From assembly GCA_051294905.1 (NCBI GenBank), contig CM119372.1, forward strand, positions 27,716,001-27,780,000: DNA of 64,000 bases, given 5' to 3'. Of the stretch, positions 15,754-64,000 are shown in pieces. The translations under genes were made by a program, and so were the position numbers. The stretch is from Botryllus schlosseri (taxonomy: Eukaryota). The notes beneath the pieces were generated by a model. That model was not told the origin of the DNA. It searched no databases and was given only the letters and a program-made list of their open reading frames with translations. The stretch's first letter is position 1. Each line of letters starts with the position of its first letter.

Positions 15754-17812
15754 ACCTAGTCCTAGTATAGTTCAGTAAGCAATAGTTTGAATACAAGTTA
15801 CACCAGCTCTTTATATTCAACTACACCTCTGTTCAATGTACAGAGATCAAGCCTTTCTTCAGCCCATATCGCATATATAGATAGTTTTTGAGAAAATTAG
15901 GACTGCAAAAACCAGCACATTACATAATCAATGGTGATTTGTGAAATGAATAAATATACTTACATAATCACATGTTTCCATGGGTTCTTGAGTCAAAAGT
16001 ATGTATAGCAAAAGATGACTGCACCGGCACAAAATCCGTTCAGATGACTCCTCACGTCACTATCAACATTGTCTGTTAGCGCAGGCACGGTAGATCCAGG
16101 GTCTCTTTTCGAAGAGTCGACATCAGTTGGATGAATTTGAGGATCAATTCAAGACTGTTGAAAAGAAAATACTTGTTCAACAATTTGTAATACAAGGGAG
16201 GTATTCAATATTCGAACAGCTTCTTTGAGGTACAAAACTTGAATATAAAATTGAATAGTAGGCCTATATGTATATTGAAATGAGCCCGAATATTTGCGGC
16301 TGAGACTCGTCAGGGGTAATTGTCAGCAACTAGTAGAGAATTCAAAAGAACGTTGTATATCAACAATCGTATCACAAAATATGACGTCACCAGCATTCAG
16401 TATTCACGCAGATATCAGACTGGATACAATTGTATGTGACAAAAGAGTGTCTTTCAAGAACAATTAATTAATGTAATGGAAAGTTGCATGTGACCTTATC
16501 ACCAATTTTACTCCAGCACGGGTAGCATACTTTCCTAGATTGGTAATCATTTTAGTGAAATTTTATCAGCAAACATTCATAAAAATAACCGAATGCAGTA
16601 GAATCAAATTCATTATCTAAGGATACACCAGTTTACCTACGAAACACTTCGATGCTTACCAGTATTTAAAACACCAAATGCATTTCAAAAAGGTGCCAAT
16701 TGCAATACATACTACCTGCACATTAAGGCATTTTTCATATTCTTTCCATCAGCCGCAACCCAGGCTTGACGAGTCCCTGATTCGTGGCGTGCCATGGCGG
16801 CTCCATCTTTTTACTGGTCAAATCCAAATGCTGCTCCTAGAAAATACGATAAATACCAAAGGAAAATTGTACATTTTATGCAGAAGTAAATATAAATATT
16901 TCACACAGGTAGGTTACAGAAGCGCGGAAGAGGTGCTCAGCCCCCAGGTTGAGAACCACTGACCTAGCCCATTATATTTCAGTAAGCAATAGTTGAAGTA
17001 CAAGTTACACGAGCTCATTACGTTCAACTACATTTCTGTTCAATGTTCAGTGTACACTGTACAGTGTACACAGATGAAGCCTCTTCCAGCTCATATCGAA
17101 TAGTCCGTAGGCTACTCTGCGAGATAGTTCGTGAGAAAAGTAGGACTGCAAAAACCAGCAAACTACATAATCAATGGTGATATATAAAATGAATAAATAG
17201 GCTTACATAATCACATGTATCCACCCATGGGTTCTTGAGACAAAGGTCTATATCGCATAAGATGACTGTGCCGGCACAAAACCCGTTACTAACGACTCCT
17301 GACGTCACTGTCAACATTGTCTGATAGCGCAGGCATGGCAGACCCAGGGGGCTCTTTTCAAGTAGTCGACATCAGCTGGACGAATTTGAGGATCAATCCA
17401 AGACTATTGAAGAAAATATATTTGTTTCAAAAATTTGCAATACAAATGAACTACTCAGTAATCACACAGATATCATACTGGATACAGTTGTTGTTTTCTG
17501 CAATAAGTTGTGCGTGACAGAAGGGAGTCTTCAATAGAATAATTAGGTAATGGAATGGAAAGTTGCACATGACGTTACCACCAATTTTACTCTGGCACCG
17601 GTAGTATACTTCCTGGATTGTTAACAATTTTAGTGAAATTTTATCAGCAAACATTCATAAAAATCTTCATCACGAAGATAACCGAATGCTAAAGAATCAA
17701 ATTAATTATCTAAGGATACACCAGTTCACTTACAAAACACCCTGATGCTTACCAGTATTTTATACAGCAAATGCATTTCAAAAAGGTGCCAATTGCAATA
17801 CATACTACCTGC
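15754..17812. repeat. Diverged tandem segmental duplication (15754-16720 vs 16962-17812, also 14560-14785 vs 16722-16935)
   Basis: Long colinear similarity between the segments, seen by direct reading. Confidence 0.85.
16214..16394 (-). mobile_element. Solo Penelope pseudo-LTR fragment with mutated hammerhead
   Basis: Matches 60320-60494, flanked by ATTCAATATTC/ATTCAGTATTC, and absent from the paralogous duplicate at ~17450. Confidence 0.85.
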
Positions 17813-17933
17813 AAAATAGAGTTTAGTTCAGTTACCGTATCATAATAAACTCAGGAAAGTCAAATTTGGGGACTGGGCAAAACAAATACTACCCCTTGTG
17901 ATCCATGGTTTGTTGAAAAGATTGTGCTATTAT

Positions 17934-18774
17934 TAGGGCGATTTTTTGGACATAAAAAGGAAAGATTTTGACCAAAATATCCAAATTCACACGTATTTTG
18001 ACGATAAACTTAATTTTGACCGCATGTACTTCAATTAGATGTTTCTCACATAATGTTAGACTTGTACTACCGGTACTTATCTTTATTTCTGGCTGGAGCT
18101 GTCTGTTCTTCCGAAGTAGTTTGACCTGAAAAAAATCTTTTGGTATGAAAACTGACAAATTTTTACATGACAAACCTTATTTTATCGAAATCTGGACCCG
18201 TGAAGAATTCCAGTTTTAGTTACATCTCGTATTATGGTAGAAATAATTAAAACTTAGTTGTAGTACAACGAAAGATACTTTCCTACATTTGCGGGTATAA
18301 AGTGTCTGTCCTTACTAAGTAGGATGGAGAAAGAACGTTCACCAGCAGCAGTTGTTGGTCGGCAACACTGAAGTCGTGCGTACACTGCAGGTGACACACC
18401 GTGTTGCTTCATTATGACAAAGTTGTCTACATCGCAATTTCTCATCATACGGTTTCTAATAGAAGAGCCAATGCCCACGCAGTCTTGCTTCAGTTAGGAT
18501 ACTGCAGTAGGCTACGTTGAGCATTTGTTTCATTTGACAGTTTATGATTCACAATGAGCAGACGATGGTCCGTCTACAACGGTAGGACTATAAAGTAAGC
18601 TACAAGATGTAAATTGTTAAATGATAAGTTCACCGACAGTGCAATCATCTATGATACAAACAAAATGCAAGTTGTCAAAAAAAATTTGACTTTGTAACAA
18701 TTTTGGCAATTTTTGACCTAACGGTACAATTTTGACAAAATTTTCTATTTTGACATGTCAAAAAAATCGCCTTA
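17934..18774 (-). mobile_element. Deleted hAT element with C-terminal dimerisation-domain remnant
   Basis: Imperfect TIR TAGGGCGATTTTTT.GACA. ORF 18254-18478 ends PTTAAGERSFSILLSKDRHFIPANVGKYLSLYYN (hATC ERSFS motif). No TSD recognisable. Confidence 0.7.
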
Positions 18775-19121
18775 GTTAACACCTTACCACTTGGAATAAA
18801 CAGTACAGTGTAAAATGTGTTGCAGTTGAAAAACCATCAAAATCGTTGCATGACTGTCATACCGGTATTCAATTGCTGACATTGCAGTACTTGTCCACAA
18901 CGGACCACAATATCGCCTACATAGGGATATTTCAGTGTGGATTAGGGTTGGTTCAGATATCAATAATTTTCACTATCCGGATAACAGATATATCCGTATA
19001 TTTGAAATTTATCTAACTGGTTAACCGGATAATAACTGCTAAGTGAGACAATCGATTTCCCGAGGTGTGCATGAAAAACTGTTCGCAAAATCATTACTGT
19101 TATTGTAGAGTAGACCTATAC

Positions 19122-20089: not shown

Positions 20090-21435
20090 ACGCGCAGTAC
20101 GAGCGAATACGAGAAAAACCACGCAAATTTAGTGTTCACTGCTTTTGCAACGCCATCCTTATAAAGCACAGTGTATCAATTGTGGCATCCTGTAGCCGGG
20201 ACCGGAATTTTCTAACAGAGAGTCCACATACATTGAATGCTTATTCAGCTACCACAGAAGTGGGATGAATAGTAAAGCAGCGCTTCGTAGAGAGTCTAAA
20301 GGTTGGCAGGTCGTTTCCCGGAAACTTTAAAACTTTATATTCCTTTTGACCATTCTTCTGTTTAGGTTTGGAGTACTAGTAGGACGAGTAGCTGATACTG
20401 AAATTGATGCCGACCTGATACCTCGCTCTAATTCCTCCGTGAGAAAGTCACGTGATCAGGCACGCAGCCAGCCGAAAATTAAGGGAGGAGGTGTTTGAAA
20501 TTAAATGAGGGGGTTTCGATTTTTTTTCGAAAAAAGTATCATCGGAAATCAATTACGCTTGCACGCACGCACCGCACATGTTTGCGAACATTCGATGTCA
20601 TTCAGTTTCGCGATGTCATTCTCACAATCGCTAATCAGAATACACTTAACGGCATATTGTCCCAAAGCCATCGAGGGATAGGAGCCAACGCATGCTAGGC
20701 CCGAGACGCGATGGCAGGGCCAGCGATGATATCTTCCGTAGGCCTATTGCAGATGCGATTGTGTAGGTCAGCGATAATATCGTGAGTATCAAGCCAATTC
20801 AGATGCGATTGTGCACTGTGCAGGCCAGCGATGGAATAGTGTGCACACTGCACAGTGCACAGGGCCTATTGTAGATTGGTCCTGTAGAATTTGGTCTAAA
20901 AATGGCTTAACCTAGAAAAAATTATTATAAAGACGTATTATATACTGTTGGAAAGATAATTTTACTAGCTTTTCAATGATAGGTTTTGTCACTTTTTCTA
21001 CTTTGGGGAGAAAAAGTTATGACCAAAAACGTGCCAAGGGGTAAAAATTGAAATTAGGGAAAAATTATTATAAAAATATGAACAAACTGCTAGAAACTAA
21101 TGAATTTTCAACAGAAAAGCAGGATATAGATGTAAAAGGAATATATGAAAATAAAATAGAATTATAAATGTGTTTCAGGGAGTAAGAGTGAGCAAGACAG
21201 GGGGATGTGGAGGAGGGGGGCGCAAGTAGAGCTGTTGTCCGTTATAACTTCATTATGTTATTGTTTACTTAGTATGGTCTGTTTCATTTACCTTGCTTGT
21301 TTTTTTAGATAGTGCTTAGTCAAAAAAGAAACAGCAGTTTGTGTTAAGTGTAGAAAAGGCTATCGTACTGTAGATTCACTCTGTCATTCAGGAGCTCATT
21401 TCTGCGAGAGTGATAGTACCACACACCCTTTAGAC

Positions 21436-26020: not shown

Positions 26021-27224
<1,204 letters not shown>

Positions 27225-30180: not shown

Positions 30181-32134
30181 GTCTATATAGATTACTAAGT
30201 TACCCGTAGGTTAGTTATCTATAGTAATCTATAGTCTGTCAGCCGTCAGTAACATCGGATGCAGCAACGAAGACATAGGTGCCGCCGTGCCGGCTTGTGA
30301 CGTCATATGGAATACTTGTCAATTGTCGATAACATCATAGTTGCACTAGAACGCACTTTACTCGGTGCATTGCTGTGTAGTGTACAGCATTAAAATTCTG
30401 ATGCGGCGTTTTAATAATGGCACTGTGATCGTTAACATTGATCCATACAGCTCAATTCAATCTTTAAATGTGCGATTATGATTCAACTGTAACTGTAGTA
30501 AGAGCAATATTGGCGGATAACACGACGTGATCAATAGAAATTCGATTTGTACCAAATGGCCAATTGTTTGACGTTCGATATTGGAGCACTCGTTACCAGT
30601 GAATCCGGTGTCGATCAAGTTTATCGGAATATGCTATTTTCCCGTTGAAACGAATTTAATTAAACACTGTGCCATGCACATTCCGCCATGCCCATAACGA
30701 ATTAAACTATGCAGTATGCACATTGCACATTTACAAGTCACAGTGCGCGACAATCCGGGAATCCTAGAGTATCAAGCAGACATTAAGAATGAACGAAACA
30801 GATGATGACAAATTGGTAATCGCGTATCGAATCAGTAATTTGTCTCCAACATAAAATACATGGGGTCGTGACTCCTGACATCGTATTGAGTAACTCGCAC
30901 CGCGACAATTGTTTGCTGAGTGTAACGTCGTTTTGGGCTACTCTTCCGCCATCCCCAATTTACGCTAGGAAATCCTTACTGGAGTGAATGACGATCATGC
31001 GCAGTAATGAATTCCAATCAGCATGAATGATTGCATACTCAATAACACTGTCCAATTTCGCGGCCCGATTAAAGAATTAACACGAAAGAACGAGTATTTG
31101 CTCATCCGATTCATACACTCTTAACGAAAAGAGTGGTTATACACACCCCAAAAGGTGGTACACGAAAACAGAACTTACGTAACCCTGCCGGTGTGAATGA
31201 CCAGAATCCACCCCATTCCTTGCGGTGTATATCGGATATCTCACCCTAGCCATTAGAATTGATTGGGGCGGAATTTCAATATATACACCCCACTTGAAAT
31301 CCTGCATCTTCTTCCAAATGGCACGCTATTGCAAATAAACTTTCTTGATTGCATATATTCGATATCAATTGAACCATAATAACATAAAATGGAAACATAT
31401 TTCGTGAAATAACAAAAACAGAGATCCCAGCGACGGAGAAAAAAATTCACTGAAAATACTGCTCGAAGAACATTGCCCATGTAGTATTGGGATGTCGCCT
31501 CCTCCAGGTTTCCGAAAAACACTCTTGTACGGCGAAGGCTGAGTCATTATCTTCAGCAAGATCTTGTGGCATCATCCTGAAATCGAAATGCATATTCACA
31601 ACCCAAATAACAGGCAGATATGCTAACATGCATAACTTAATGAAAGACCACAAAAATAGAAGCCATTACAAAGTATATATATTTTCACGAAGTACTTACA
31701 AAAAATCAGATGTTACACTTGCTAAGGAATTGCAGCACAGACTGTGGTCCGATAGGGTGAACTTACCGCTATAGGAAACATGTTCACACACGATCACTGT
31801 ATGTGTGGGCAATTAGGCATCGACAAAATGGAAATTGATGGATAGTTTTCATGCAAACCGCATGTAACAGGCAGACTTGGACAACTAGAAAACGTTCCCT
31901 TTTTCCAAATTGGATTGGAATTATATTACAACTACAAGTTTTTTTTTCGAATTAGAGTAGAATTAAAATTTGAGCTACACAGTTGGAAATTAGATTAAAA
32001 TTATAATTCTACCTAACAGTTTTTTTCAAATTAGATTAGAATTACTGAAATCGCCAAAAGTTGAATCAAATTCCGTTATCATCAAATCATAGTTCATCTT
32101 ATGAGCATGAGAACAGCAAATTTCTACTGTACAG

Positions 32135-32795
32135 TAGGGGTGTTCAAAAATGACTTTTTCTTTCAAATCTACCGGCTACTCGATAAAATTGTTAGGTTAC
32201 CTAATTGAAGCCTGCACACCAAATTTGGTTTGAATCCAACCAGTAGCCGCATTGCTACAGGAGAAGAAAGTTTTTTATTTATTATATGAAAATGAACGAA
32301 AAAAGATTTAAAATTTTCTGTTCACCGCATTAAATTGTTAGGTTGTCTATAGCAACAATCCTCAACCGATTTGGCTCAATTCCAACCAGTGGAAGCAGAG
32401 TTATTGCCGTCACAAAATTTTGGATTTGAATAAAATAGTATTTACGGTGAACGATTCTTTAATCATTTATGACTGTTGTGCCCACCGTAAATACTATTTT
32501 ATTCAAATCCAAATTTTTTGAAATCAATAACTCCGCTTCGGTTGGTTTGATTTGAGGCAAATTTGGTGGGAATCGTTTCTATAGACAACCTTACAATTTC
32601 ATGGGTGAACAGAAAATTTTGAATTTTTTTACTAATTTTTAAATAATAAATAAAATAACTTTCTTCTCCTGTAGCAATGTGGCTACTGGTTGGAATTGAA
32701 CCAAATTTGGTGTTTAGGCTTCAATTCCGTAATCCAACAATTTTACCAAGTAGCCAGAAGAATTTGAGAATAAAGATTCATTTTTAACACCCCTG
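32135..32795. mobile_element. Foldback MITE with ~300-bp imperfect inverted arms
   Basis: (T/C)AGGGGTGTT termini, arms run almost to the centre (~32465), TSD CTGTACAG/CTGCACAG. Confidence 0.9.
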
Positions 32796-33642
32796 CTGCA
32801 CAGCAAGCTTGGCTTGTTTCGCACTAGACAGTTCTTCTGCAACGTACCCAGGAAATCCGGGCATTAGATTAGACTTAAAAATAGACCATAGAAAGATTTC
32901 ATATATTCGATTAGAATTGGAATTAGAGCATAGAAACGTTTCACAAATTAGAATAGCTTCAATTAGGTTAATTAGACAACTAGAATACTAGCAACACCGC
33001 CTATATCAGAAATAACTGAATATTTTTTTGAAGATTCTTGCTGTTAGTAGTGTCATATGCCATTAGTAATTTTATATTAGTCGCGAAGATTCATATCGCA
33101 ATTTTCAAGGTAGAATCCTCTGAAAATCTGCGTACCATACTTGACTATTTTTCCAACATTTCGTATTCTACTTCCACTTGGCGTAGTTTTGAATTGTATT
33201 GGGAACTGTTGCATCTACTTGTAATCGAGTATAAATTGACGGGGTATTTCTACATAGACTTGAGTAGCAACGCTAGTAACTTTGACCATCTCTGCTTTGG
33301 TTTACTTCATATATGCGACTACGAAAGTTGACATCAGGTGTCGTTAACAAAGTTGTCATACCTGCTGGCTTGATAACGAGTCTTTCAGTTGTCGCAGCAT
33401 ACTCCTAAACTCGGTTAGTTCCAGTGATATAATCTTGCTCTTGGAGCATGCAGTCTTTAAGCAGCATCCTAAAATTTAAAAAATAATTAGAGAAAGAGAT
33501 GCATGGACTTGATTTAAATTTGACTACTTGGTATTAATCCAAAACACGAAACGTTTTCTAGTTGGGCAATATTGACTTTCAGAATGGATTCAAAGCGACC
33601 GCAGATACAGGTCTGATTAGGAAACCTTGACTTGCCTTAGCC

Positions 33643-42008: not shown

Positions 42009-44147
42009 CTGTTTTACCAAATTTAATGCTCGGCAAGCCGGTCAAAAATGACCGTCAAATTGCCTGTAGCCAAATGGAAATTGTGACGTGATACAATTTC
42101 ACTGAGGCGTGAGATTTTCCAGTGTCGACACCATATAGGACACTATGGTTTCAGGCTTATGGAGTAGTTTTGGAGTGAATTTCCGGTTCTCAAATAAAAA
42201 AATATATTTGGCGGTTGAATATTGACGAATACTTTGAACTTCAAAATGCCATCGCGGGCCGCACAAAACGGTCTCGCTGGCCGCGTGTTTGAGACCTCTG
42301 TTCTAAACAATCGCAACGGCGCAGCACAATGACCATACCAACGGTACTTGCGTGGTTACGATTGTTTAGAGCAATGCCGATTTTCGTGCTTTGAAGGCTA
42401 TTTCGGGTTGGTTGCATTGCCTTGACGAGAGTTTAATGTATATTATCAGAATCAGCGCGACTGTAGCTTTCAAATAAGATCAACTTTATTCAATTTGAGC
42501 ACTCGGATCGTCATCTATGGGATTAGCAATTTCGTTGCCGTTTCGTGCTATGAAGCGACAACAAATCTGCGGACCGTGAATCACGTGTTGCGCATCTATC
42601 CGTAGGTTAGTTATCTATAGTTTGTCGTTGCTATAGCTCAGTGGTCGGGAACCTTTTTTGTCCGAAGAGCCATATTGACCCTATTTTTTCCATCTCAACT
42701 CCGAAAGAGCCATACCTTTAAATCAACTGTTACGTCACAATAGGAAATTCATGACGTCATGGTAGCACTAACTCGAACTCACTACATGGGATTCCTCGTG
42801 TGCGCCACATTTTTTTCTGTAAAAACTGGCATTCATTGTTCGAAAATAAAGCTCGAAACGAGAGGTAAGACGCAGATGGGCCAGGCCTCACCAATGATAA
42901 CGCAATTCATCGTAAGTAGCTTAGAATTTATTAAAACTAATATTAATGTGACTGTCACACTTATCCGAAAATCTAAATACTTAATGACTTCTCAATTCTC
43001 AAAGTATATTCGGCGGTAACATATCGTTGCGCTACACGCATATATTTTATCCCCGGTACTACACAGAACAGGAAGAACGTGGAACGTGGCTTTGTCTGTA
43101 ATTTGAGTTTGTAATTGTGAATGTCACATCCACAACAGTTCATTTCACGCCGTAGATCAGGAAGACAGTGTGAATTTGAAAAATTCGTTTTGAAATGAGC
43201 GTCGCCATGTCTGCCATGCAAACATGGGGTGATTACTTTATGAATGTAATCGATTGCGATGACGATTACTTCGGTATCACGCGATTACGATTACGATTAC
43301 GATTACAGCAAAATCTGGAGGTAGTCGATTACGATTACGATTACATTTGAAAAGTAATCACGATTACTCACGATTACATTTACTTTTTCTATTTATTTTT
43401 GAAGACATATTGGACGACAATATTACTGGCGATGAAAAGGCCTCATGAGAGAACAACTTCGTTCTTAAATGTGACATCATTCGCTTGTTACGTCACGATA
43501 TACCATTACATAACTTTATAGATGACGATTTCTCAGACCCAACGATTTGCACTCTGAAAAGGGCCATAACTGCCGCACACCAAACCCCCTTATTCGGTAG
43601 GGGGCGAGCTCAAAAAGGGCCAAATTATTTCGTAAATTAAAATAAGTTATAGAGTGTTTTTGAATGATTAATTTAACTTGAAAATTTTCCTCACCCTTCG
43701 CGATTTCATGTCGCTAGATATATTGATTTTAATGTGCATACCCCTCCCCATCAAGAAAATAATATGCATAATTTGTAGAAATCGACATTTCGGTACCGAC
43801 CACTACCGCGCCACGACACCAAGACATACACAGACGTATGACGAACATGTGCTACCAAAGAAAGATCTTGGCCGAAACGTCCATGTATATGTGTCCACTG
43901 TCCAGTGTCGACTGTCCATTGTCCATAGCTGCGCTGAATGGGCGTGACGAATAGTCCTATCCTAACATAAGCCCCGTAGTACAATGCCACCCGGTGTACC
44001 CATAGAGGAAAATGATACATCCCGTGAATAAAAGACAATTTGTGCATGCGTCTCACGAAATGTTTTTCGTTCAGTTTAGTCTGCAACGTTTGTTCGACTC
44101 CAATATCTTTTGACTTGGCGGTAGATCGCCAGTTAACAACATGCGAC

Positions 44148-48500: not shown

Positions 48501-50081
48501 TAAACGGCGTACGGAGCAAAGATTCAACAGGATTCATGTTCGCACTTGACCTGACTACTTATCTGCAGAAATGGAAATGACTATAAATCGAGAGATTGCG
48601 TATACCTTACTGGAAAGGTCAACGAGTTCGGACACATACGCAATTGTTATCTCATAGATTGGACAAGGAAATGTCATATTGAATCCAAAACATCATTCTG
48701 AAGAACTACGGATAGCATCCTCGGAAATTCGGTCCCGGTACAGCTTGGGAGATTTTGACCTTGAGGCTGGAGATTGTCACACGACACATACGGCTTACGG
48801 TCTATAGTGTCTACTGTCTATATGTCTGCTGCAAAATCGCCTTCGGAAAATATATTACCGAATAAATACGTGGATGAAAGCCGAAAACTTGGTACACTGT
48901 TACATGAAATCATCGAGAAGTAGCCTCATGACCGTTTTCGGTATGGTACACTGTCAAAATTAATACGAATTGATCAACGCCGAATTTTGCGTAAAATTTA
49001 CTGAGGAATAGGCTGATCAAGCGATAAGCTGTTAGCCGCCATCGAAAACGAAACAGCTATCGCGCTTGACAGGGGTTGTAATTGTGAGCAAATGGCTCGA
49101 AGGCCACCATTCCACGGTGAAATTGACATTGGAGAATATAAAATAAAACTAAATATTTGAATGCAAACCGAGGATGTTAGTAAACTGTTTCATGATATCA
49201 TCATCTCATCACCTATCTCAGTATGGAACACAGATACACCGGCTTTTGCGTGAAATCCGCAATGCGTTACGTAGGCTAAGTGTCAGATCAGCGCACATCT
49301 CTACCATACTCGAACTTGATAACGAAATTGCTGCCCTAATCATTGAGTGCCAACCTTGAGACTTGGCACAGCGTTCGATACTAAAATCAAGACATACCAT
49401 GTAAAAGCTCATGACGGATCTAGCTAAGGAGCATCGTTAAAATTAATGGAGACCAATACCGGCTTTGCGTGAAATATGTTTGCGATACATGACGGATCAG
49501 CACACACTCGACTTTGGAAACGGAATTACTACCCTAAACTTTGAGTAGAAACCCTGAAACTTAGGACAGTGTTAAATACCACCATCACGACATGACATAC
49601 CAAGTTTCAAGAATTATCATGGTGTGAAACACCATCAAAATCGACCTATACCAGCAAAGGTCGACTCAACGCATATCACGGTATCCGAGTTCAGATATAG
49701 ATACGATTGTTACATCACACCTTAGGGGCGACAGGCATATATGCCCCGGTTGCTCGGCCATTTTACGAATAGGAGAGAGTATATCACCGTTTCTTAATTG
49801 TGCGCGGCTTTGAGAGAATAGATAGTGAAAGCTTGTTATGAGCGCTACCGGGGCAAGCCCCGGCTAGGCATTCACAAAGCGAAAACACAGAAGAGAATTC
49901 GATTTTCGCAGAGACTTCGCTATGTATGGGCATTTGCAAGCGAAAGCACCAGAAGAACGCGGGTTTCGCTGTGATCTCGGTATATATTGAGCGCTGTGCG
50001 TCTATAAATGGTTAAATTGTTATTGAACAGAATTTTAGGTGGGGCAATGCCCCAGTTGCCCAATAGGACGAGCCGCCACTG
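45503..50081 (-). mobile_element. Near-complete autonomous-type hAT transposon
   Basis: Perfect 14-bp TIR CAGTGGCGGCTCGT, perfect 8-bp TSD ATGACTAC, internal transposase. Confidence 0.97.
46446..48537 (-). pseudogene. hAT transposase (ZMYM1-like: TTF zinc finger, DUF4371-type core, hATC dimerisation domain) with one frameshift near 47030-47060
   Basis: ORF 47032-48537 has WLTYSEDKNALFCFYCLLF, LPLRGHDE, DETTD, QTYDGAAVMSG, HCYAHQLNL and TRWN. Overlapping ORF 46446-47168 has SAESERSFSTLKRIKTFLRNRMGQDRLNALAVLSIH. Confidence 0.93.
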
Positions 50082-50509
50082 ATGACTACATACATATACA
50101 TCGAACATTGATTTGCTATGTGTGGATAATTCGTTACGTAATCATCGACGAGCAAAGCTAATGCTTGTGACGTGATAATGAGCAGCGGCACTTGAGAAGC
50201 CGACATCTCCTACCAATAACATGGTATAATATCGCACTCTTCCTTGTTCACTGTTCAGTTTCAGTCAATAGTCATTCTACAAATAAAAAGTAATCGTTCT
50301 TTCACCAAGAAATCGATTAGTTATGTGAAATAATCGATTACGATTACGATTACTTCGGATTTTTTTCGAATGTCATCGATTGCGATTACGATTACTTGGA
50401 AATGCTGTAATCGTCGTAATCGATTACTAATCACGATTACCCCATGTCTGCTGCCATGTTCTTTGATTCAACGTATCGCACAATTCAAGATTTCGATTCA
50501 GATACATAG

Positions 50510-50695
50510 CCAGGAGGTTTGAGGCACCAGTCATTTCAATGGCGTGGGTTCGAGCCCATCGCTGCCGTCACACCAGGATACAGAGCCTGTACTCCCTGCT
50601 GCACCACGAAACGATGTCGACACACGATAAACGTTTAGTACTGAAGAGACATCCTAACAGCACGAGCAGTCGTTATATAAGGCAACTAAATAAAC
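50510..50695 (+). mobile_element. tRNA-Leu-derived SINE fragment or tRNA pseudogene
   Basis: GGCACCAGTCATTTCAATGGCGTGGGTTCGAGCCCATCGCTGCC resembles the 3' half of tRNA-Leu (long variable arm, T arm). The 5' half is missing and the downstream boundary is approximate. Confidence 0.6.
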
Positions 50696-51149
50696 GGCGC
50701 AATCAGAGACCTATTCAATAGCCTGCCAATTACTAGGAGCCTAGGTTCGGCTCCAATATAACACAAACAATACTGGCGCATAGAATTCGTGAGTGATATT
50801 GGTCGCCGGCGAGAAAGTAACTTAAATTTGATTATTTTGAAGAGAGGGGGTCCGAGCCCCTAAACCTGAAGAAGACATTGTCTTTACTTCTCAAATACAT
50901 GTTAATACTTAATACTGCCACGAGAATAATTATTTAGGCCTTGATGAAAATTTACCAACAAGTCGCTGCAATATTGATCAATTTTGTGCAAAAATAAATA
51001 TTTGGCAAAGAGCCATATCTTATACCCAAAAGAGTCATATATGGCTCGCGAGCCATAGGTTCCCGACCACTGCTATAGCTGATCGCTGCTTCAATGTTAC
51101 GTAATACGTCCATAATTTGTCTGAACTCTATCGCGCATTTTTGTGTGGT

Positions 51150-54100
51150 GGAGATAAAATCACATAGTCTTTTCGAATTCTATTTGCCAGTATTTTTGTT
51201 TGTAGTTTGTAGTCAGAGTGGGCTAGGGATATTGGCCGCCAGTTTTTAAGGTCTTCAGCATCCACCTTCTTGAAAATCATAGTAACTTTCGACTCGTTCC
51301 ATGATGTTGCGGTGCTTCTAAAGAGAAGAGCGTTGTTGTATACTTGGAGAAGGTTGTGCTTGAGCATTTGGATGAAGGTCTTATAGAATTCGATCGAGAT
51401 TCCGTCCGGGCCAGGTGATCGGTTATTTTCCTGTGTTTTTAAGGCGGTTTGTAGTTCTAATCCAGTTATTGGGGTGTCTTGAAGTATGTTGTTTTCAAAT
51501 GTTACGCTTTTTGTCGTGTGTTCAATTAAATTCCGTTGTAAGTCTTGATCTCCGGTTTGTTCATCACTTCAAAGGTTTTTATAAAAGTCGTGTATTATGT
51601 TTATGATTTCTTCCCTGTCTTCCGTTATATCTCCGGATCTACCTTTCAAGCGTGTGATCGTTTTCCTTGGCTTCTTTGCTTTCAGTTGTTCGTAGAACTG
51701 ATGGGTAGGTTTTTCTACCTTCTCAAGTTGCTCTCTATATTGGAATTTCATGGTTGCATCGAGCCGTTTTTTCTCTATTTCCTTGAGCTCTTGAATAGTT
51801 TTGTATCTTTATTCAGGAGTTATAAAAGGTGCTTGTAGTTTGCTGTCAAGAATTTTTTGTAATTGGTTTCGCTTTCGTTTTTTTTCGATACCATAGGAAA
51901 TAGATTGTTTTTTTTATTTCATTTTATTGTTAAGCTCGTCCCACCACTTGGCAACGGTTGCGTAGTTTGTTTTCTCCATGTCAAATTCGTTGTATGCGTT
52001 TTCTATTAATATTCTGTATTTGCAGTTTTCATGATGAGATACATTGTTTCTCCAAGTTCCTCTTCCCCAGCTCTGCGACGGTTTGGGTTTATTTTGATTT
52101 TCGCATAGGTCTATAGGTTGGGGTTTGATATGCAATTAATCTTGTATTCCGCCAGCGTCGCCATCGTTGCAAGCAAGGCTTTTCGATACATAGATTCCAT
52201 CTATGCGTCGTGAGTTGAAGTTATTTGTGTTGGAGAAAGTCATTGTGTATGGTCTCTGCCATCTATGGATGTCCAAGACTGAGATTTGTTTTTCACGAAG
52301 CTCTTCCAAATCTTTCCGCTGCCTTCTTCATCCGGAAAAGAGTTTGTTTCTCACTGTCAATTTTGTCGGTGACCACACTGTAAAAAATCTGGTAGATTTA
52401 CTGGGAAATCTCTGTAAATTTTACCACGAATAACCGGTCGCAGCCAATTACTGTGCGTAGCTTGTCATTTTACATTTTGATATGTAATATTACCTTAATA
52501 TAGCTGTAAAGTAAGTTACCAGATTTTCTTCGCAAAATTACTGACAGTTACTCGTTACTGCAGTTTACCGGGCTATTGGCAATATTGATTAGCTTCAAAA
52601 TCGCTGCAGCCAATGTATACGTAGAACTGAATGTTACTGATATATCATTCTAGAGGTGATTTGACCTGATTGAACCTCGTTTGCGAGACTGGGGTCTGTC
52701 ACACCGAAATTGTTGGCCCTAGTATCAATTTAAGCTTAGTAGGGTACAAGAAATAACTGACAATCGTAGCTAATGTGGTACACCGTAGCCATATTATATT
52801 ATAAGGCAATGGCTGTACGGCCAGTCTCGCTGGTTACATTCGTTGTCACGGATAAGGCTGATAAGTTAGAAAATTAGTTCAGGATGTATAGTATAATATT
52901 GCTCGGGGAAACTAGAAATATCAGCACCGCATGCTCAGCTGACCATTTGTTAATGGCGGACAAGGCGACTGTAATAGGTTACATTAGGTGACTGCTTTTT
53001 CTGAGATTCGTAGTAAACAACCAACGCACAACTGTGACATCACAAGCAGCGTCTGGTTAGGTAAGTACAGTAATAGTGAACAACACGTGGAATATATATC
53101 AATTTATGCGAAATTAGATGAAAAAAGGGACTATATGCAATGATAAATGTTTCTGTATGGAAAAAACGACCCAGATCAAACATTGTAACGTGGCCAGTAA
53201 ATATTATTGGTGTCATGTGTCAGCGGATGAATACCATTTATTTCGAAATCGTTCGAGTGTCGTCTGGCCAGTGGCCATTAGTGAGATTTGAGCAAAGGGT
53301 GGAGCGAAGCTTGTTGTGCTTGAAGAAAGTGGACACGATCGTTGAAGATTCCTAGGAATGCTGAATGGAATACGCATCTTAAAAGGTAATACAGTACTAC
53401 ATAGTATTTGTTACCGTGAATATCTGACTCTGCACACCAGCCCTCGATGACTTGGATTTCATGATTGATATATTTCATTCGCCGCATTCTCTGTTCTATT
53501 TTGGGATATTTGTCGACTTATATAGTGACCACATACTCGGCTGCGGAGGAGTTGTAACTGTTGGCTTGGTAATGTCATATTCGGGCCATAGCATAGATAT
53601 GTTTTCATCCACTGCTGGAATTGTTTGCCACATATGCCACCTTAAATTAGGAACCTTTTGCTTCAATACAGAGATAAAGTCATGAATCTCTGCTATGCCA
53701 TGTATAAGGCGGAGCCGTCATCACACAATGTGCCAGTACCGGTACTTCAAAACATGTTATATTTTTGTTAGCCTATTTGTCTTAGTCTTTATAATGTCAT
53801 GTCCACTGTCCAGGTTAGGAACTTTGCTTTATATAGCGACTTACGCATGAATTCTTTTTAGTGGAACTGCAAGATACTACTTACACAGAAGGAATGAGAA
53901 CGAGAAAAAGAAACAATTGGAAGTTTGGCCGGTGGTGGAATTAATTCACGTTTTCTTGAGACCACTCGTGTTACTGCATGTCTCCTAAAGAAGAATTAGA
54001 CCTCCAGCAGCAATATTTTTCCATCGATAACCACTTCATCGTGATATCATGAATGAATATACAGTTTGTTCCAATGTCGTTTTGGGGATGTGAAGAAAAT

Positions 54101-55010: not shown

Positions 55011-55991
55011 TTCAAAGTTCCAGATGGCATTGTATATTACTCCTATATTTGTCTCTTCTTGTGTGTTTGCGTCAAGTGACCTCGCTCGGTCCTTGTGAGT
55101 GTATTGGCCATGTCCTGCCTACGGAGTATGAGTCCGAGAAGCTTACAGTCATCGTTGAGAAGGAGTTCTTGTCGTCCTCTATTATTTATTTTGAGTTCGT
55201 AGTCCAGACCAGTGGTTCTCAACCTTTTTCGGTGAAATTTCAAAAAATATTCAGCGGACTGGTGAACTTTCAAAAATCGAAATCAACTCAGAACGTGAAG
55301 TATACAACTGTTTTATGCAAGTATATGATGCTAGAGAGTGACATTTTAGGGGTTTGATCGTGAATAAAGATGATCATGATGGCAACCATCTCAATATACC
55401 GTAGTTGGTCTGCTGAGTCGAGGTAAAATTGCCCATGCAGCCAAACTAAATGACCTAGTGCCGGGAGTCGTATATAGTCTTTCGCTTCAAAGGTCATAGA
55501 TTTAACCGACCGCGTTAACTCGAAAATTAATATTCTTTTCGACAATATCGAGAGAACAAGCGCTTCGGAGTCGAACCAAACACCTTGTCGTGCTACCTTG
55601 CTCATTGCCCACTACCACCAGCCGTACGTTACTGGCTATACTATGAATTGGGAATGGTGAGAACGCGAGGTTCACGTTCGCGTTCTGTGGGCGACGTTCA
55701 CAAACGAATCTTCGTAGGTTCTGGGCTGTGAACCTTTTTCATATATTACAATTTTTCATATCATAACATCATTGGTTGAAATTCTTTGCTTTTCAACTTC
55801 GGGCCACTATGCATGTAGGTGGTCAGCGAATCATCCTTCTTATTCCACCAATCAATGAAGGTGATATGAAGAATACATCTCTGTCTACTGTAAAAAATCT
55901 AACAGGCGTATGGGATCGATCATTATTTTACATGTTTATTGTATCATAAAAACCAAATCCGTGTGACCGGGGTGTTGGCTACTGTATAACG

Positions 55992-56847
55992 CAGGGGCGG
56001 GCAACATACGGCCCGCGGGCCGGATCCGGCCGGCGGACAGTTTTTCGTCTTACATGATATTATGCCCCGCGGCTTCAGTCTGCCGAGATCCCCCAGTACT
56101 TGGTTTCTACGTCAAATTTTAGTGACTGTATGTTAATATATACGTGTATGCGCACATTGCGCAGCGTTGCGATAGTGGAGCTTACGCGTAAGTTCGTCTA
56201 AGCGAGAAGACTTGCATTATCGGCATTTGCGATGCACTCAACCCTAATGTCGTCTGTGGTAATCATGATTTTTGTCGACTACAATGGTCAATTACACCAG
56301 GCTGATATGTCTTATTTTTGATTCCGTAACCGCCGACTTGTAGCACGGCACACTTCTATGCTTTTGTAAGGCCCCCTTTATGCCAGCGGTCGCCAACTCA
56401 AAATGGGTCGCAGGTCACTTTTCAAATTTCGTAGAGGACGCCGGGTACATGAATTCAATATCGAGATTAATGAGGCCACACAGTTGAACAACGGCGCTAT
56501 CTCGTTACCTAGTCAATCCTAATGAATTGATATCTTTGGTAAAGTAGGCTTACCGGGCTTATGGAACGCCTTAAAATCTTAATTAGGGATTGCACCGTGT
56601 GTTGATTGATCAGGAAGAAGCAGACATGGCGGCGTCTGTATGACAATGTTATTCTCAAATTCGCCATTATCGGCGAGAAATGGCTTTGAAGTGACATTGC
56701 TGTCGTTAAAATACATTCATTAAATACGATTTATTCCTTGTATTTGTGGATAAATGGGCGAATAATGTATCGATTCAGCAATCCGGCCCGCCAAGCACTC
56801 AATTTTCCTATATCCGGCCCGCCGACTGGAGAAGTTGCCCGCCCCTG
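55992..56847 (+). mobile_element. hAT MITE, CAGGGGCGGGCAAC family
   Basis: Perfect TIRs and TSD GTATAACG. Confidence 0.95.
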
Positions 56848-57355
56848 GTATAACGTGTTAACGGAGTAATATCGGATGCAAGTATACATTCCCGTTTTAC
56901 ACTTAGCTCAATATCAATATATCAATAGTCAGACGTGCCAGACATTGTCCGGTCTGGCACAGATCGTTTAGGCGTAAGATTGTATTCCCTTGCAAGACCT
57001 CGTCGAAATTGTTGACAAAGCGACGGAAGATATTGATTTTATGGGATTTATATCAGTTGATTGCTCCAGATGATACATTCGGTGACTTTTAAAATGTTAG
57101 CATGTACTTCAGCATTGTGGCATAATGTGGCCTCAGTCATCGCTGTACATTAATCTATCACTTCACTGAAATATTTGTAAGGTTGGAATTTGCCATTTGA
57201 CGTCCCGTAACGCCATAGGTACACGATCGCGTTCACACAAAACTTTTAAAAAAGATACACGTTCACACGAACCTGAACCTATTAGAGGTTCATACGATCC
57301 CTACCATGAATACAATGCGCCGCACGAAAAAACTGACTACAGCTATACCTGGCCA

Positions 57356-59719
57356 CATAGGCGCCGAGTTACGGGGTGGCGGGGTGGCGCAGCCACCCCA
57401 TGACATAATTATGGGGTGGCGGCCACCCCATACAAAAACGCCCGCCGTCTGTGCTGTTAATTATCGAGTCTGTGATTATCGCGTAACTGCCAACTATTTA
57501 CTATTAACCGATACGCGCGCGACTAATTGTATACGCAGCTTAAACTAGTCCCTAAAGCGCCCCAATAAATTGTAATCGGTGATTAGTAATCATACAATCG
57601 AAGCGACCTCGTTTACGACGTCGATTTCGACACGCGTGCTCTGAGAAACAACAGCTTTCTCTACCGGACGAGCGAGTTCACGTTCTACTTCTCTCAATTA
57701 AATTGTATTTGCACGCATATTCGTTTACAAAATAATTCTTGAGTTAGTTTCGTGATAGTCTTTTTAATTGGATCGCGAAATAGGACAGTGTGTTTGTGTA
57801 TTCCTCCGAATTGAAAGTCATTCCTGCGCCAAGTTCCCATATTCAATTGCAAACAATTGTCGCGATGTCAGACTCAGCACTCCGTTGTGCCATACGCAAG
57901 TTGAGGAATTACTGATTAGATGCGCGCTTTCTCGTTTGCTATCATCTCTAGGCTACTAATTGTTGTCTACTCTATACACTCGTATTCCCTCGAAGACACT
58001 TATCAGTGTTTGATTGTTATTAATACTGCGCATTGTGCAGTGCACGACATTGAATTATGTTGTCAAATATTGATGCAACAAGAGATTCTCGGTGGCGGAT
58101 ATTCTGAATTTATTCGATTAGTTTGAGCGGGAACCTTCTAAGTTCCAATAAACTTCATTGCTGGACGGACTCTATCGGGCACAACCGTGTCGCGGATCGA
58201 ATTTCAAACCATCGGGATTTGTATTTCTATTGATAAGGTTGCGGCATGCGCCCATAATGCTCTTGCTGCAACCTGCAATAACACCCGGATAATTAAAATC
58301 GCACCATTTCACGATCAAAATCGATTGGCTGATCGGGACTTGCGTAGCCTGTAGGTTCCGGGCTGATATTAACCAGAACGTTGTCGGTATTAAAACCCTA
58401 GGTGCGTAGCCTGTGATTTTCTCATTTAAAACTAGAAATTCAGTCCTTTTGAAATGCCAATTCGCTAATTCGTATTATCGATACTGCGTACTGAAAATTA
58501 GCGAGAATCATTTGTATGCGAAATGGGTCATCGATGTCTCATTGGCACCATCGGCGGTGGTATGATTTAGCGCCTCCGCATGCAGTCCTACTACCGTCTG
58601 CAGAATCAATTTCGCCAAACAGTAACAATCTCTGAGTGCAATATTGTTTGTGTTTATGTATCTTTTTGATTTAAACTTATGCCCGTGTCAGAACAAATTG
58701 TGCTCGTTGCCATTTCCGAATCTGGGTATTTAGGTATGACTAGCGCACCCTGTAATTGTAATTATTGCAGGTTTGCGGCATGTCGGCAATTTCGTTATCA
58801 GCGCAACCGTGCCGGCCGATTGTACAGTCGGATAAAATTGATCACTACTATGTATTTCGCACAGCGTACCGATACTGATTTCAGCAAACTAACGATCCTT
58901 ATTAGATGTACAAATTCAACCTCATCGCTAGAACCGTAGATTTCATCGCGCGCTCTGAGAAACACCATCTCCTATCGTGATTTGACGACCAAATATTCGT
59001 TCACCTTCTACAAAGTAAAGTGCATTATTTGCATCGATGAGGGCCGCAAGCCGCGTTTAAAATATTTTGTGTACCATTTTTGTAATAAATATTCTCGTAG
59101 CGCAAAGTTAAACACTTGAACAGTGTTTTATTGTGTATGCCTGCTAGTTGGAATTTATTCCAGTGCCCAAAATATTAATCCAATTATGCTTTGTGAACGT
59201 AAATCGGGAAATGCAGCAATGCAGTCAAAATCGATGTTTTAATCAGCAACCGATTGTCGTGATGTGAGCTATACTCAATACTAAGTATAAACCCACTGCG
59301 TTGACGGTAAGGGATAATTACTGATTGGCCGCGCGCGTTTGTAATCATCATTCTTGCTTGTCTTTCGTGTTCCAGAATTGTTGTGCCGTATTACTGCTCA
59401 GTCCAGCGACGAATGCCGAGTGCGCGGCAATCCATGACCTACTTTCGCAATCATCTCAGCGGGAGATCGCGTCGCGTTACACTGCGCGATGCGATATGCA
59501 TGCACATTGCACAATGCACAATTGCACATGCACAGAATAATCTCGCTAATTGGCCCCGCGTGACACTGATAACACGGCTTGTTGAATTGCAACTGAATAT
59601 TAGCGTCAGAATGGTCATTTCATAAGGAAGGGGTTTTGCGTTTCAAAAGGTGGGGTTTCGACACCCCCTGGCTACGCGCCTGCCGCCACCCCATGCAAAA
59701 ATAAAAGTCGGCGCCTATG
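57356..59719. mobile_element. Non-autonomous hAT-type element (CATAGGCGCCGA TIR)
   Basis: 12-bp TIR, GGGGTGGC subterminal repeats, perfect TSD CCTGGCCA. Confidence 0.92.
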
Positions 59720-60913
59720 CCTGGCCATCCACAAAATCGGGGCCGATCGTCAGCCTAATTGCTCAAAAACGGTAGTCTTGCGCCCCACAAAGCGATATAC
59801 CAAACTTTTAGCAGGGGAGCATCGCCCCAAGACCCCACAGTTGGTTGTTTCCGCCAGAACTTGCGAACACATTCAATCTACTGAGTATAGGCAGATCGTT
59901 TTCTATAGGTAATTCATGACTGAATCGGTCAATAAAATTGTTAATTGCATATATATTGATGTAAATTTGTATACTATCAGATATCAGATTTTCCGCTAGA
60001 GTTGATTGGGTTGATTGGACAATTTAGGGCACGCAAGAAATAATAATTAAACATATTCGGGTAGGCCTGTTGGAATAATAACTTCATTGCATGTCAATAT
60101 TTCGTCACCTACTGTCTGTTATATTGTGACTAGATATTGAAATCACCCAAGCGTAGTAACCTAAAGAACGCACACTATTCCAAATTGGTATTTCTTCACC
60201 GGCAAATAATTTTACTCTGGCCTTTGTCATTTGTGCTGCAGGGCACAGATTGCCAGGACAGTGAGAGTAGGTGCCAACCATTATGGGGCCTATGGACAAT
60301 TATACATATATATATATTTGAAGAGCTTCTTGGAGGTACAGAACTTCAATATACAATTAAATAGTATATTCATATTGAAATGAACCCGAATATTTTCGGC
60401 TGACACTCGTCTGGGGTAATCGTCAGCAACTAGTAGAGAATTGGAAAGAACATTGTATATCAACAATCGTATCACAAAATATGACGTCACCAGCATGAAA
60501 TTTCGAATGAGAGAGCGTTCAATGTACTATTTTTAGGTGATACACGAACTCCTTTTGTTGACAGAGTTTTGGTTGGTGTATTTTGATAAAAGTTGATTCC
60601 AAGGCACACAAATGGAATTGTGAACGGCCTCAACCTACGATTCGAAATCGGTCGTCTCGATAATTATTCGCACAAATCGGATTACCCAACAGATATTTGC
60701 CGATGGCAGAATTAATGACTTTTGATCGATCAGCATCAATCTTAAGTGGATGAGTTAAGGGTGAGCTTTTCACATCGCGTGACGCACGTGTTCTGATAAA
60801 TCTGGGGACATGTTGGTTGATGCGGTCCTGCAGACGTCTTGACGTTCTTCCCACGTAGCCACAATCACAGTGGCACCTATATTCGTACACTACATTACTT
60901 TGTTGAAGTGTGA

Positions 60914-61678
60914 GTGTGCCTATGCCTGTGCCTATGCCTATGCCTATGCCTCGTGCATAGAGCGTTGATGATATGTTCGGGTAACAAACTGAGTTTAGAA
61001 CTTGACTACATCCGAAAAATCTTACTTGATAACGGTTACCCCGAACACGTCATCAGCCACGGCATGGAGAGGAAATTAACGCAATTCAACGCAGAAAAAC
61101 GAACAGAGCCCACCGCACGAACAATAAAAGATGTTTATATCCATCTACCTTGGATTGGGCCCATTTCCACCCGCTTTGAAAAACAATTGATTTCTGCTGT
61201 CGGTAAATGTTACGATACAGTCAAAACCAATGTGATTTTTACAACAACACAATTGCTCCCTTCAACACGCAAAGACGTGCTTCCTGCACTTCAACAAAGT
61301 AATGTAGTGTACGAATATAGGTTCCACTGTGATTGTGGCTACGTGGGAAGAACGTCAAGACGTCTGCAGGACCGCATAAACCAACATGTCCCCAGATTTA
61401 TCAGAACACGTGCGCCACGCGATGTGAAAAGCTCACCCTTAACTCATCCACTTAAGATTGATGCTGATCGATCAAAGGCCATTAATTCTGCCATCGGCAA
61501 ACATCTGTTGGATAATCCGATTTGTGCGAATAATTATCGAGACGACCGATTTCGAATCGTAGGTCGAGGCCGTTCACAATTCCATTTGTGTGCCTTGAAA
61601 TCAACTTTTATCAAAATACACCAACCAAAACTCTGTCAACAAAAGGAGTTCGTGTATCACCTAAAAATAGTACATTGA
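60914..61678 (+). CDS. Penelope-like RT C-terminal region plus GIY-YIG endonuclease (5'-truncated, homology starts ~60947)
   Basis: LVHRALMICS, ELDYIRKILLDNGYP, LPWIG, NVVYEYRFHCDCGYVGRTSRRLQDRINQH, SAIGKHL, HQPKLCQQ. Confidence 0.88.
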   Translation: MCLCLCLCLCLCLVHRALMICSGNKLSLELDYIRKILLDNGYPEHVISHGMERKLTQFNAEKRTEPTARTIKDVYIHLPWIGPISTRFEKQLISAVGKCYDTVKTNVIFTTTQLLPSTRKDVLPALQQSNVVYEYRFHCDCGYVGRTSRRLQDRINQHVPRFIRTRAPRDVKSSPLTHPLKIDADRSKAINSAIGKHLLDNPICANNYRDDRFRIVGRGRSQFHLCALKSTFIKIHQPKLCQQKEFVYHLKIVH

Positions 61679-61779
61679 ACGCTCTCTCATTCGAAATTTC
61701 ATGCTGGTGACGTCATATTTTGTGATACGATTGTTGATATACAATGTTCTTTCCAATTCTCTACTAGTTGCTGACGACT

Positions 61780-61813
61780 ACCCCTGACGAGTGTCAGCCG
61801 AAAATATTCGGGT
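61780..61813 (+). ncRNA. Minimal type I hammerhead ribozyme
   Basis: ACCC-CTGACGA-GTGTCAGCC-GAAA-ATAT-TC-GGGT, predicted cleavage after C61809. Confidence 0.78.
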
Positions 61814-62440
61814 TCATTTCAATATGAATATACTATTTAATTGTATATATATATATATATCGAGGCTATCGGTCAATACAGGGCAGTATTTTTCGGTCAA
61901 GGTTATCCCACCGGCGAGTTTATCGCACATTTTCCGGATTCCTATGTTAGCCTGAACTTCATTATGCAATGGTGCGTCCCTTCACAGAAGGAAATAATCG
62001 AAAACGAATGATCGCGCAAACTGCGCGGATTAGTGAGTAAGCTCGTATTAGTCCTTGCCGCTCATATTTCGTGAAATGGCACGGGTTGAACTTCAAGTCA
62101 AATCGAACATGCTCCCGGGCCTAAAATCTTACTTCACGACGATCTGAATGAGTTCAAAATTTGATATTTATTTTATTTTATCAATGGACAAGCCTTCAAC
62201 ATAATGCATCTTGAAATTTTGTTATTAAATTGCTAAATACCTCGCGGACCGGCTGGAAAGGCGTCGCGGACCGGCGGTTGAGAACCACCGGTCTAGACTA
62301 CATTTAGTCCATGTACGGTAAGACATTTTGTAATTCTTACTGCAATTGTCATTTATAGCCGGTCCTCTTCACGGTTCCCTGTTAGTCTTTCGACTCGGGT
62401 GGTTTTCGGGGATATTCTCTCCGACAGGCCCCTCTCTTAA

Positions 62441-62660
62441 GGCCCATTCGCACATGCACGGTTCCCGGCCACGATTTTTGCCGTGCGGTTTTCTATCGTA
62501 CGGTTAACAGGCCGTCTTGCCATGGGAATGTTCGTTCACACATGCACGATTCGTTCACGGCGGTCGTGGCTACGGCTATCGTACGGTCAATTTCTCCGTT
62601 ATTTTGCTGCCGTACGGAAAGTTGGATCAAACAAACTTTCCGTGGCTGTCGTTGCCGCCG
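62441..62660. mobile_element. Left end of a PIF/Harbinger-like element
   Basis: TAA followed by GGCCCATTCGCACATGCACGG with CACGG/CCGTG repeats. No matching right end found. Confidence 0.4.
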
Positions 62661-63384
62661 TGAGCTCAGTCGAAAGTGTGCTCCTATGGATTTAGCAGCT
62701 TGTCGAGATGAATGTATTGAATAATTATCATGCATGCCGGTATGATGGTACTGCTATGCAGTAGTAATCAGTCGTTTTGTTATGTATGCTCGCCTGTTGT
62801 GGTCATTCTATATTACTATGCGGATGTTATATGGGCTCCTCATCGCCGACCTCACTGCAACTTAAAAAGCCCAGTCGCAGAGGGCCGAGCTGTAGCCTAA
62901 GTCGGCAGCAAAAGAGACGATTATGAAGCGCGCGTGACAGAGTGCCTGAGAGAGTGCAAGAACATTAACGACACGAAGAAATAAATTCATTGTACTGTAC
63001 AAATTGTAATGCCGTGGAGCACAAAGTCATAAACAGGCTATAAGCACCACTGCACACATTATTGGGCACTGTGCACATTCTTCGGAAGGCCTTGAATGCA
63101 CCACTGGACTAAAATTACATTGTGAATCACAGCATAATTTCTGTAATTTCGATTCTTCATCTTCAATCATCTCTACCTCTGCTCTGTAACCCTTGCCAAT
63201 TCTTCATCTGCTGCAATTCTGTAATCTGACTTCTCCATGTATTCCATAGGAATAACAATTTGAATGTATTACTGAAATTTTAAAAATTTACTCCAATCTC
63301 GCCATTTTCCTGTGGGGGCAGGTTGCTTCCCGGATTATGTGTGTATTTACCAGTTTTACTGTGAATAAAGAATATAATAATGCA

Positions 63385-64000
63385 CCAATGCACCACATGC
63401 ATCACCCAAAATCTGATACACAAAGACTGTACAGTGTACATCCCCAGAAAAAAGGTGGTCGAGGACTACAATAAATTGAACAAACTTTCAAAACAGAAAT
63501 CATTGGCTTGTCACAGTACGTCAACAACAGCGATAACATTTATTGCAAACTCATTGCACAGGAAGACAAACAGCGCAAAACAAAGTCTCTGAGCTATCGT
63601 CACGACAAGCACGTCAGAGAAGTCAACATGGAAACAGCTAACCTGTACGCTGCTGAAAACACTATTGCCAAACCCACAACAATAGCAAAAGCAGCACGAG
63701 TTCGATACAAAAATGCAACGCTCAAAATAAGAGAAACGATATGGGAGTCAATGCCTCTTCATGGACAGTACAAAAAGTTAACTTCACAGTCCCATGTAGA
63801 CGAGCTTTCATGGACCTGGTTATCCAGCTCTGGTCTGAAACCGGCAAGCGAAGGATTTATTTTCGCAGCACAAGACCAATCGCTTCCTACAAAATACTAT
63901 CGCAAAAGAATTCTGAAGCAAAACACAGACGGCAAATGCAGAATGTGCCACAACCAAAATGAAACTGTGGCCCATCTCATGTCCGGCTGTGGTGCACTTG
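63385..64000 (+). mobile_element. R4/Dong-like non-LTR retrotransposon fragment (post-RT region to CCHC zinc knuckle), runs off the window
   Basis: HHPKSDTQRLY/IPRK.GGRGL, then from 63742 WESMPLHGQY...WLSSSGLKPASEGFIFAAQDQSLPTKYY...CRMCHNQNETVAHLMSGC. Confidence 0.85.

Follow-up and report, generated by a model that had tools for sequence, protein, structure and literature searches.

The window analysed here, a stretch of 64,000 nucleotides from Botryllus schlosseri (assembly GCA_051294905.1, contig CM119372.1, positions 27,716,001 to 27,780,000 of the forward strand), is repeat-dense eukaryotic DNA in which nested hAT-type miniature inverted-repeat transposable elements, or MITEs, abound. 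Scattered through it are short arrays in which the hexamer TGNNCA is repeated with, as a rule, one intervening base, here called the spacer. We describe these arrays, the relation between their spacers and the bases that flank them, and a transposon insertion at a matching target, which together suggest that the arrays are probably footprints left by repeated excision of a hAT element.

TGNNCA arrays in the window

Fifteen pairs of the form TG(NN)CA-x-TG(NN)CA with identical NN are present in the 64 kb. An earlier note on this DNA, made from the sequence alone, had proposed a count against a Markov background; run on the window only, with chains of order 1, 3 and 5 and 200 simulations per order, this count gave means of 0.10, 0.07 and 0.20 pairs and a maximum of 2. 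The other 15 motifs of the type XY-NN-rc(XY), where rc is the reverse complement, yield 0 to 2 pairs each at equal spacing. The 15 pairs group into 10 sites, all of the form nTGNNCAn and hence of an nTnnnnAn-type target (Table 1). All seven arrays listed in the note were recovered, together with three same-NN dimers absent from its list (20810, 50245 and 53265), and its description of a variable spacer beside a nearly fixed NN holds for the arrays of the window. The spacer is C or G in 10 of the 15 pairs. The array at 43892..43925 sits within nested hAT-type MITEs, and the dimers at 53265 and 53800 lie inside an element at 52376-54427, not at its ends.

The note had also claimed that two of the arrays are insertions, and both cases are borne out by comparison with a paralog or a reading frame. 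The 17044 array adds 21 nt relative to its paralog at 15830-15842, while the TGTTCA-A that precedes it is common to both copies. At 63428, the dimer places 7 extra nt where the codons for RLY and IPRKK meet; the label of an R4-like long interspersed nuclear element given to this region was not confirmed, as two nearby open reading frames are without a Pfam match. A third insertion, at 9252 and of 7 nt relative to a paralog, complies with the spacer rule described below. A variant with a three-base spacer, TGCGCA-CAT-TGCGCA, occurs at 13085 and 56149 in two copies of one MITE; it is longer than the paralog near 27880 and lies outside the simple rule.

Table 1. Arrays, related duplications and the filled target site in the window (lower-case letters, flanking bases)
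Position	Strand	Feature	Basis or remark
9252..9264		g-TACCGA-C-TACCGA-g, looser nTnnnnAn site	7-nt insertion relative to paralog near 48770; follows rule
12171..12200	+	Possible lone element end: TTGTACAT then CAGAGGTGCC, nTGNNCAn site	Possible end at 12179; no partner end found
17044..17070		TGTACA array of 4 units, 3 of them added (spacers G, C, G; flanks A, C)	Paralog comparison; rule history by hand
20810..20822		Dimer t-TGTGCA-C-TGTGCA-g	Spacer is complement of right flank
20842..20861		Trimer g-TGCACA-C-TGCACA-G-TGCACA-g	Reachable by rule
30708..30729		Off-consensus dimer c-TATGCA-G-TATGCA-c, overlapping with dimer a-TGCACA-T-TGCACA-t	Both follow rule
32127..32134	+	Left 8-bp target-site duplication CTGTACAG (nTGNNCAn)	
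32135..32795		Filled site: fold-back MITE of 661 bp, non-coding, ends TAGGGGTGTT / CAGGGGTGTT	82% self-complementary
32796..32803	+	Right 8-bp target-site duplication CTGCACAG	7/8 identical to left
43892..43925		Five TGTCCA units, one of them mutated; spacers C, G, C, T	Last spacer (T) violates rule
48808..48820		g-TGTCTA-C-TGTCTA-t, off-consensus hexamer doubled whole	Follows rule
50245..50257		Dimer t-TGTTCA-C-TGTTCA-g	Follows rule
53265..53277		Dimer c-TGGCCA-G-TGGCCA-t, within CACTG element	Follows rule
53800..53812		Dimer a-TGTCCA-C-TGTCCA-g, within CACTG element	Follows rule
59501..59534		TGCACA x5, spacers T, A, AT, none	Entire array reachable by rule; history by hand
63428..63440		Dimer c-TGTACA-G-TGTACA-t	+7 nt in RLY|IPRKK coding motif

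Spacers and flanking bases

The spacers are related to the bases that border the array. If the duplication spans 8 bp (a-TGNNCA-h) and each flank forms a hairpin upon excision, the expected product is a-TGNNCA-x-TGNNCA-h, in which x is the complement of one of the flanks, h' or a'; retention of both (h'a') or of neither is also allowed. When the 15 pairs were scored in this way, the spacer was only a complement of a flank in 10, only the same base in 1, both in 3 and neither in 1, and thus complementary in 10 of 11 one-sided pairs (p=0.006, for events that are not fully independent). In the informative isolated dimers the complement was found in 5/5 (p=0.03). Eight of the 10 arrays can be reached by successive steps of the rule, against 3.7 expected (p=0.003-0.005). 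The irregular spacers of the 59501 array are explained as well: where a is A and h is T, h'a' reads AT, while the lack of a spacer corresponds to the product in which both bases are lost; the former, at 59515, is the sole TG..CA pair with a two-base spacer inside an array. A/T spacers adjoin A/T neighbours in four cases, at 30717 and 59501-59515.

Similar arrays are found outside the window. The pattern TGYMCA-C-TGYMCA-G-TGYMCA has at least 117 loci in metagenome contigs and 0 matches in viral contigs. Beyond the array the metagenome loci do not resemble the window and therefore belong to other organisms. Among the matches listed, to which all proportions given here for metagenome and viral contigs refer, the three NN are identical in 68/109 distinct contexts (1 in 16 expected), and 26/41 loci of at least 1 kb are under 30% coding, while 11/41 are at 60% or more. 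After removal of 13 satellite loci, extended arrays and loci more than 50% coding, 41 exact C,G trimers remained. Three of these 41 have A/T at each end, a combination that the rule does not allow (13.7 expected), and in trimers with non-palindromic NN the flank is the complement of the adjacent spacer in 19/46 (p=0.0016). In one repeat family, locus L220 has one unit more than its homologues L210, L253, L256 and L262; the spacer gained with it complements the flank and does not repeat a neighbouring spacer.

Slippage repeats served as a control. A four-unit heptamer scan of viral contigs yielded at least 157 loci, all of them slippage repeats only; across 135 distinct arrays, a difference was seen in 20/423 comparisons of adjacent spacers and in 212/558 comparisons of NN. 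Among these viral repeats, 11/196 are reachable by the rule, and the flank equals the spacer in 192/196.

A filled site and the proposed excision cycle

A search of the window for 8-bp duplications, with one mismatch permitted, revealed one element inserted at an nTGNNCAn target. This MITE (32135-32795) has YAGGGGTGTT ends, whose first 10 bases agree at 9, and is bordered by the target-site duplication (TSD) C-TG(T/C)ACA-G. The terminal inverted repeats (TIRs) of hAT elements are typically short and start with YAG. The element is a candidate member of the family that produces the scars. A search for identical TGNNCA pairs around TIRs in the window, which demanded an exact hexamer match, found no clean element with a 6-bp TSD; it missed the 32135 site because the two TSD copies match at only 7/8.

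Taken together, these data make it likely that a hAT family of the Ac/Hermes type, targeting nTGNNCAn, left the arrays as stacks of excision footprints. The cycle would begin with insertion at a-TGNNCA-h and duplication of all 8 bp, as seen at the filled site. Upon excision, each flank would drop its last base on one strand and close as a hairpin, in line with known hAT chemistry. Opening of the hairpins would add a base complementary to that at the border (left, h'; right, a'), which is the outcome that the array sequences display. Overhangs opened some bases beyond the hairpin tip, CA-h'-TG on both ends, could then anneal at all but the middle base, favouring the +7 product a-TGNNCA-x-TGNNCA-h; this preference would arise because the target starts with TG and ends with CA. 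Products that keep both bases (h'a') or neither should be rarer. As the scar contains two intact targets, it could be hit again and grow by 7 bp per cycle. Such growth would keep NN constant, retain C/G in C/G arrays and A/T in A/T arrays, and tend to make adjacent spacers alternate. On this scheme about 19 insertion-excision cycles would be recorded at the 10 sites of the window, and the CANTG that the earlier note ascribed to an element would be the annealed overhang, derived from the flank.

The individual steps have precedents. Excision of hAT elements produces blunt ends or 1-nt 5' overhangs through flank hairpins (PMC8151067), and footprints that contain the complement and make use of microhomology are described in PMC5873905 and PMC3499496. 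The Ac/Ds footprints are among the nearest parallels to the arrays: the joint is centred on the complement of the base that borders the element, microhomology is common, the TSD is 8 bp, and the two major footprints are one base apart at the joint (PMC5873905). They differ in being single experimental events from one donor site with varied products, whereas the window holds natural events with mostly one +7 product, one target word and up to 5 stacked units. Hermes, which prefers nTnnnnAn, and related Ac-type elements share the 8-bp target whose second base is T and whose seventh is A (PMC10368747, PMC8721813), as well as the flank hairpin chemistry, but the target deduced for the window is stricter, with G at 3 and C at 6. 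TcBuster and Buster-type elements likewise combine hairpins and end joining, added complementary bases and an 8-bp TSD (PMC3499496); their target, however, is nnnTAnnn, and such MITEs are frequent in the window with few comparable scars. Sleeping Beauty and other Tc1-mariner elements leave a small scar of fixed length that re-forms the target (PMC8151067), but without a hairpin and with bases added from the element ends (CAG), while the spacer in the window depends on the flank. Finally, Stowaway insertions at a beta-amylase site reuse one position for several insertions and excisions (PMC1925063), but these elements are mariner-type and their footprints are independent across lineages and show no growing 7-bp stack.

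Several observations weigh against the hAT footprint interpretation. The rule was devised after the contexts in the window and the metagenome had been inspected, so that the window statistics are not out-of-sample. Two pairs violate it: at 17037 the failure is an A spacer (position 17043) shared with the paralog, and at 43913 it is the final spacer of the old, mutated 43892 array. In the isolated dimers with mixed flanks (one C/G and one A/T), the complement of the C/G base was chosen in 5/5, which the simple model does not predict. All 82 trimer flanks from the metagenome together give p=0.05; for NN=TA, only 5/36 flanks are complements and 21/36 equal the adjacent spacer, an excess that could reflect either a preference for C-TGTACA-G as the start site or slippage. 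With respect to the element, nTGNNCAn is matched by 1 of 14 tallied 8-bp TSDs (chance of at least one match, p ~0.07), its two TSD copies differ at one base, and with a=C and h=G the site can also be parsed as a 6-bp TSD with G...C ends. The window contains a single copy of the MITE, which is non-coding, and yielded no transposase with YAGGGGTG ends; viral contigs have no match to the MITE ends. The long hAT element of the window (45503-50081) has other ends and the TSD ATGACTAC; a relative of it at 7749 is flanked by CCTTTCCT. The long element encodes a protein with DUF4371 and hAT dimerisation domains, which a homolog search groups with DUF4371/hAT-dimerisation proteins; this search gave no tie to the scars, and the element is not shown to be the mover. 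TSDs of the nnnTAnnn type are commoner (8/14 by pattern, filled site included) but offer only 2 complement-only candidates against 0.56 expected; because these commoner elements leave few scars, element number does not explain the excess at TG..CA. Scars outnumber filled sites ten to one.

Allele comparison adds only a slight further point of this kind. Contigs of four sequencing runs were compared with 42650-60250, a region that leaves the 17044, 20842, 30717, 32135 and 63428 sites outside. No 7-nt indel was located at any array among the 12 indel rows listed of 260, and no loose end among the 24 listed of about 15,000. At the 53800 dimer, an X16 contig (record 13) sets 304 letters against 311 window bases, leaving 7 gaps whose position is not given; its total, like that of X18 record 26 (16 gaps, likewise without positions), is compatible with fewer units. 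X1 record 6 spans 53265 with 6 gaps overall.

The behaviour of the spacer also bears on the alternatives, including the two parsings offered by the earlier note. The cycles of insertion and excision that it proposed for TGNNCA find support, but the filled site has an 8-bp TSD, and both parsings fit worse because they make the spacer element-derived and independent of the flanks, whereas the observed spacer complements them. In one parsing the TSD is 6 bp and a single terminal base of the element stays behind, as after a mariner-like staggered cut. It could draw on the whole doubling of one-mismatch, off-consensus hexamers (4 against 0.85 expected), on the many C/G spacers and on the filled site read as TGYACA + G...C, yet it would require two families, ending in G...C and A...T, and it conflicts with the complement counts in all pairs and in isolated dimers, with the A/T spacers beside A/T neighbours and with the flank complement in the extra unit of L220; we consider it improbable. 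The other parsing combines a 2-bp TSD with CANTG left over from the ends of CACTA-type CACTG...CAGTG elements. An element of this kind is present in the window: that at 52376-54427, which is 2 kb long, non-coding, CACTGTAAAAAA-ended and flanked by a 2-bp CA duplication. NN-CANTG-NN outside TG..CA is also mildly raised (32 against 20+/-5, paralogous copies counted). However, this sole element is inserted at AC|CA|TA rather than TG|NN|CA, one-mismatch products number 1 against 0.65 expected with that one lying within an array, and A/T spacers and the complement rule are left unexplained, which makes this parsing very improbable. To our knowledge, CACTA footprints do not normally retain element ends.

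Ordinary slippage in heptamer microsatellites, followed by substitution, deserves attention because TGNNCAx repeats arise readily elsewhere, as the viral loci demonstrate, and because of the same-base flanks of the NN=TA trimers. Slippage copies the spacer, however, and the viral arrays, with rarely differing spacers and often differing NN, are the reverse of those in the window, where, of the 16 motifs, TG..CA alone is enriched. Long arrays may owe something to slippage, but as an explanation it is largely refuted and we give it hardly any credence. An identical hairpin chemistry performed by another enzyme, either a superfamily other than hAT that duplicates 8 bp, or a domesticated nuclease or transposase cutting TGNNCA without lasting insertion, would suit the 10 scar sites beside one filled site and the missing cognate transposase, and the complement rule probes the hairpin rather than the superfamily. 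Nonetheless, the sole filled nTGNNCAn site carries hAT-type ends, and doubling of 6 bp without an insertion step would probably need a more complex path, so that this alternative appears unlikely.

In the wild, DNA transposons usually excise unseen, and excision rates and target reuse are thus hard to measure. If the arrays are hAT footprints, the relation of the spacer to the complement of its neighbour would provide a checkable scar rule that can be counted in any assembly and would amount to a census of past hAT excisions; in the window it gives about 19 events per 64 kb against one filled site. The rule would also put the hairpin model to the test with natural events in the germline, and it would account for a class of frame-breaking 7-bp insertions. 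The textbook nature of hAT chemistry limits the surprise. A literature search that left most subscription papers and Repbase outside brought up no description of stacked hAT footprints in nature, nor one of an nTGnnCAn target; the excision chemistry is known and, as far as this search reaches, the serial, self-renewing stacks are the new aspect. Beyond this we can only tentatively propose a self-renewing footprint, in which the TG...CA arms steer hairpin repair towards the product that doubles the target. Such hotspots, with the order of their spacers as a log of visits, might be widespread in eukaryote-like DNA, act as an unrecognised source of 7-bp frameshifts and seed TGNNCAx heptamer satellites; the excess of scars may even mean that most visits leave no lasting insertion.

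Further repeats in the metagenome and the window

Eight metagenome loci (L158, L179, L206, L224, L242, L258, L263 and L175) consist of long, degenerate TGNNCAx heptamer satellites with mixed spacers, which are possible outgrowths of footprint arrays. The edges of other arrays (L250, L203, L255, L274, L217 and L267) contain shorter units, e.g., TGNNC-TGNNCA or TGNNCA-GNNCA, as expected if the joint loses one further base. A search for filled sites in the metagenome loci, excluding the 13 satellite loci as well as GC-rich loci, detected hAT-like MITEs but none with a full nTGNNCAn TSD. Those in L163, L168 and L200/L221 are flanked by 8-bp duplications with a half site only (nTG at one end), e.g., GTGCAGTG, CTGTCTGC and GTGCATTG.

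Within the window, a three-level nest consists of a MITE with an 8-bp TSD (42639-51072) that contains a second one (43219-50450), which in turn contains the 4.6-kb hAT element at 45503-50081. The transposase frame of the latter is split, and its gene region is matched to about 99% by the run contigs. The 52376-54427 element has deep coverage in all four runs compared and is probably multi-copy. The 59501 array is housed in a 2.4-kb element (57356-59719) with CATAGGCGCCGA ends and the exact 8-bp duplication CCTGGCCA. Another structure, at 60349-61848, has inverted arms of 562 bp that are 98% complementary, a core of 376 bp and AT-rich runs on either side.

Short motifs at TA sites are also frequent: TAG[GC]CTA occurs 21 times, TAGGCCTA 7 times and TAC[AT]GTA 15 times (e.g., at 16259, 17108, 25308 and 33998), and AGGCTAC ranks among the most enriched 7-mers of the window. 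Relative to the paralog at 60314-60496, GGCCTA near 16259 is a 6-nt insertion; within 40716-41781, TACAG forms one of 5 nt. These TA-site motifs (TAG[GC]CTA and others) are probably further classes of footprints.

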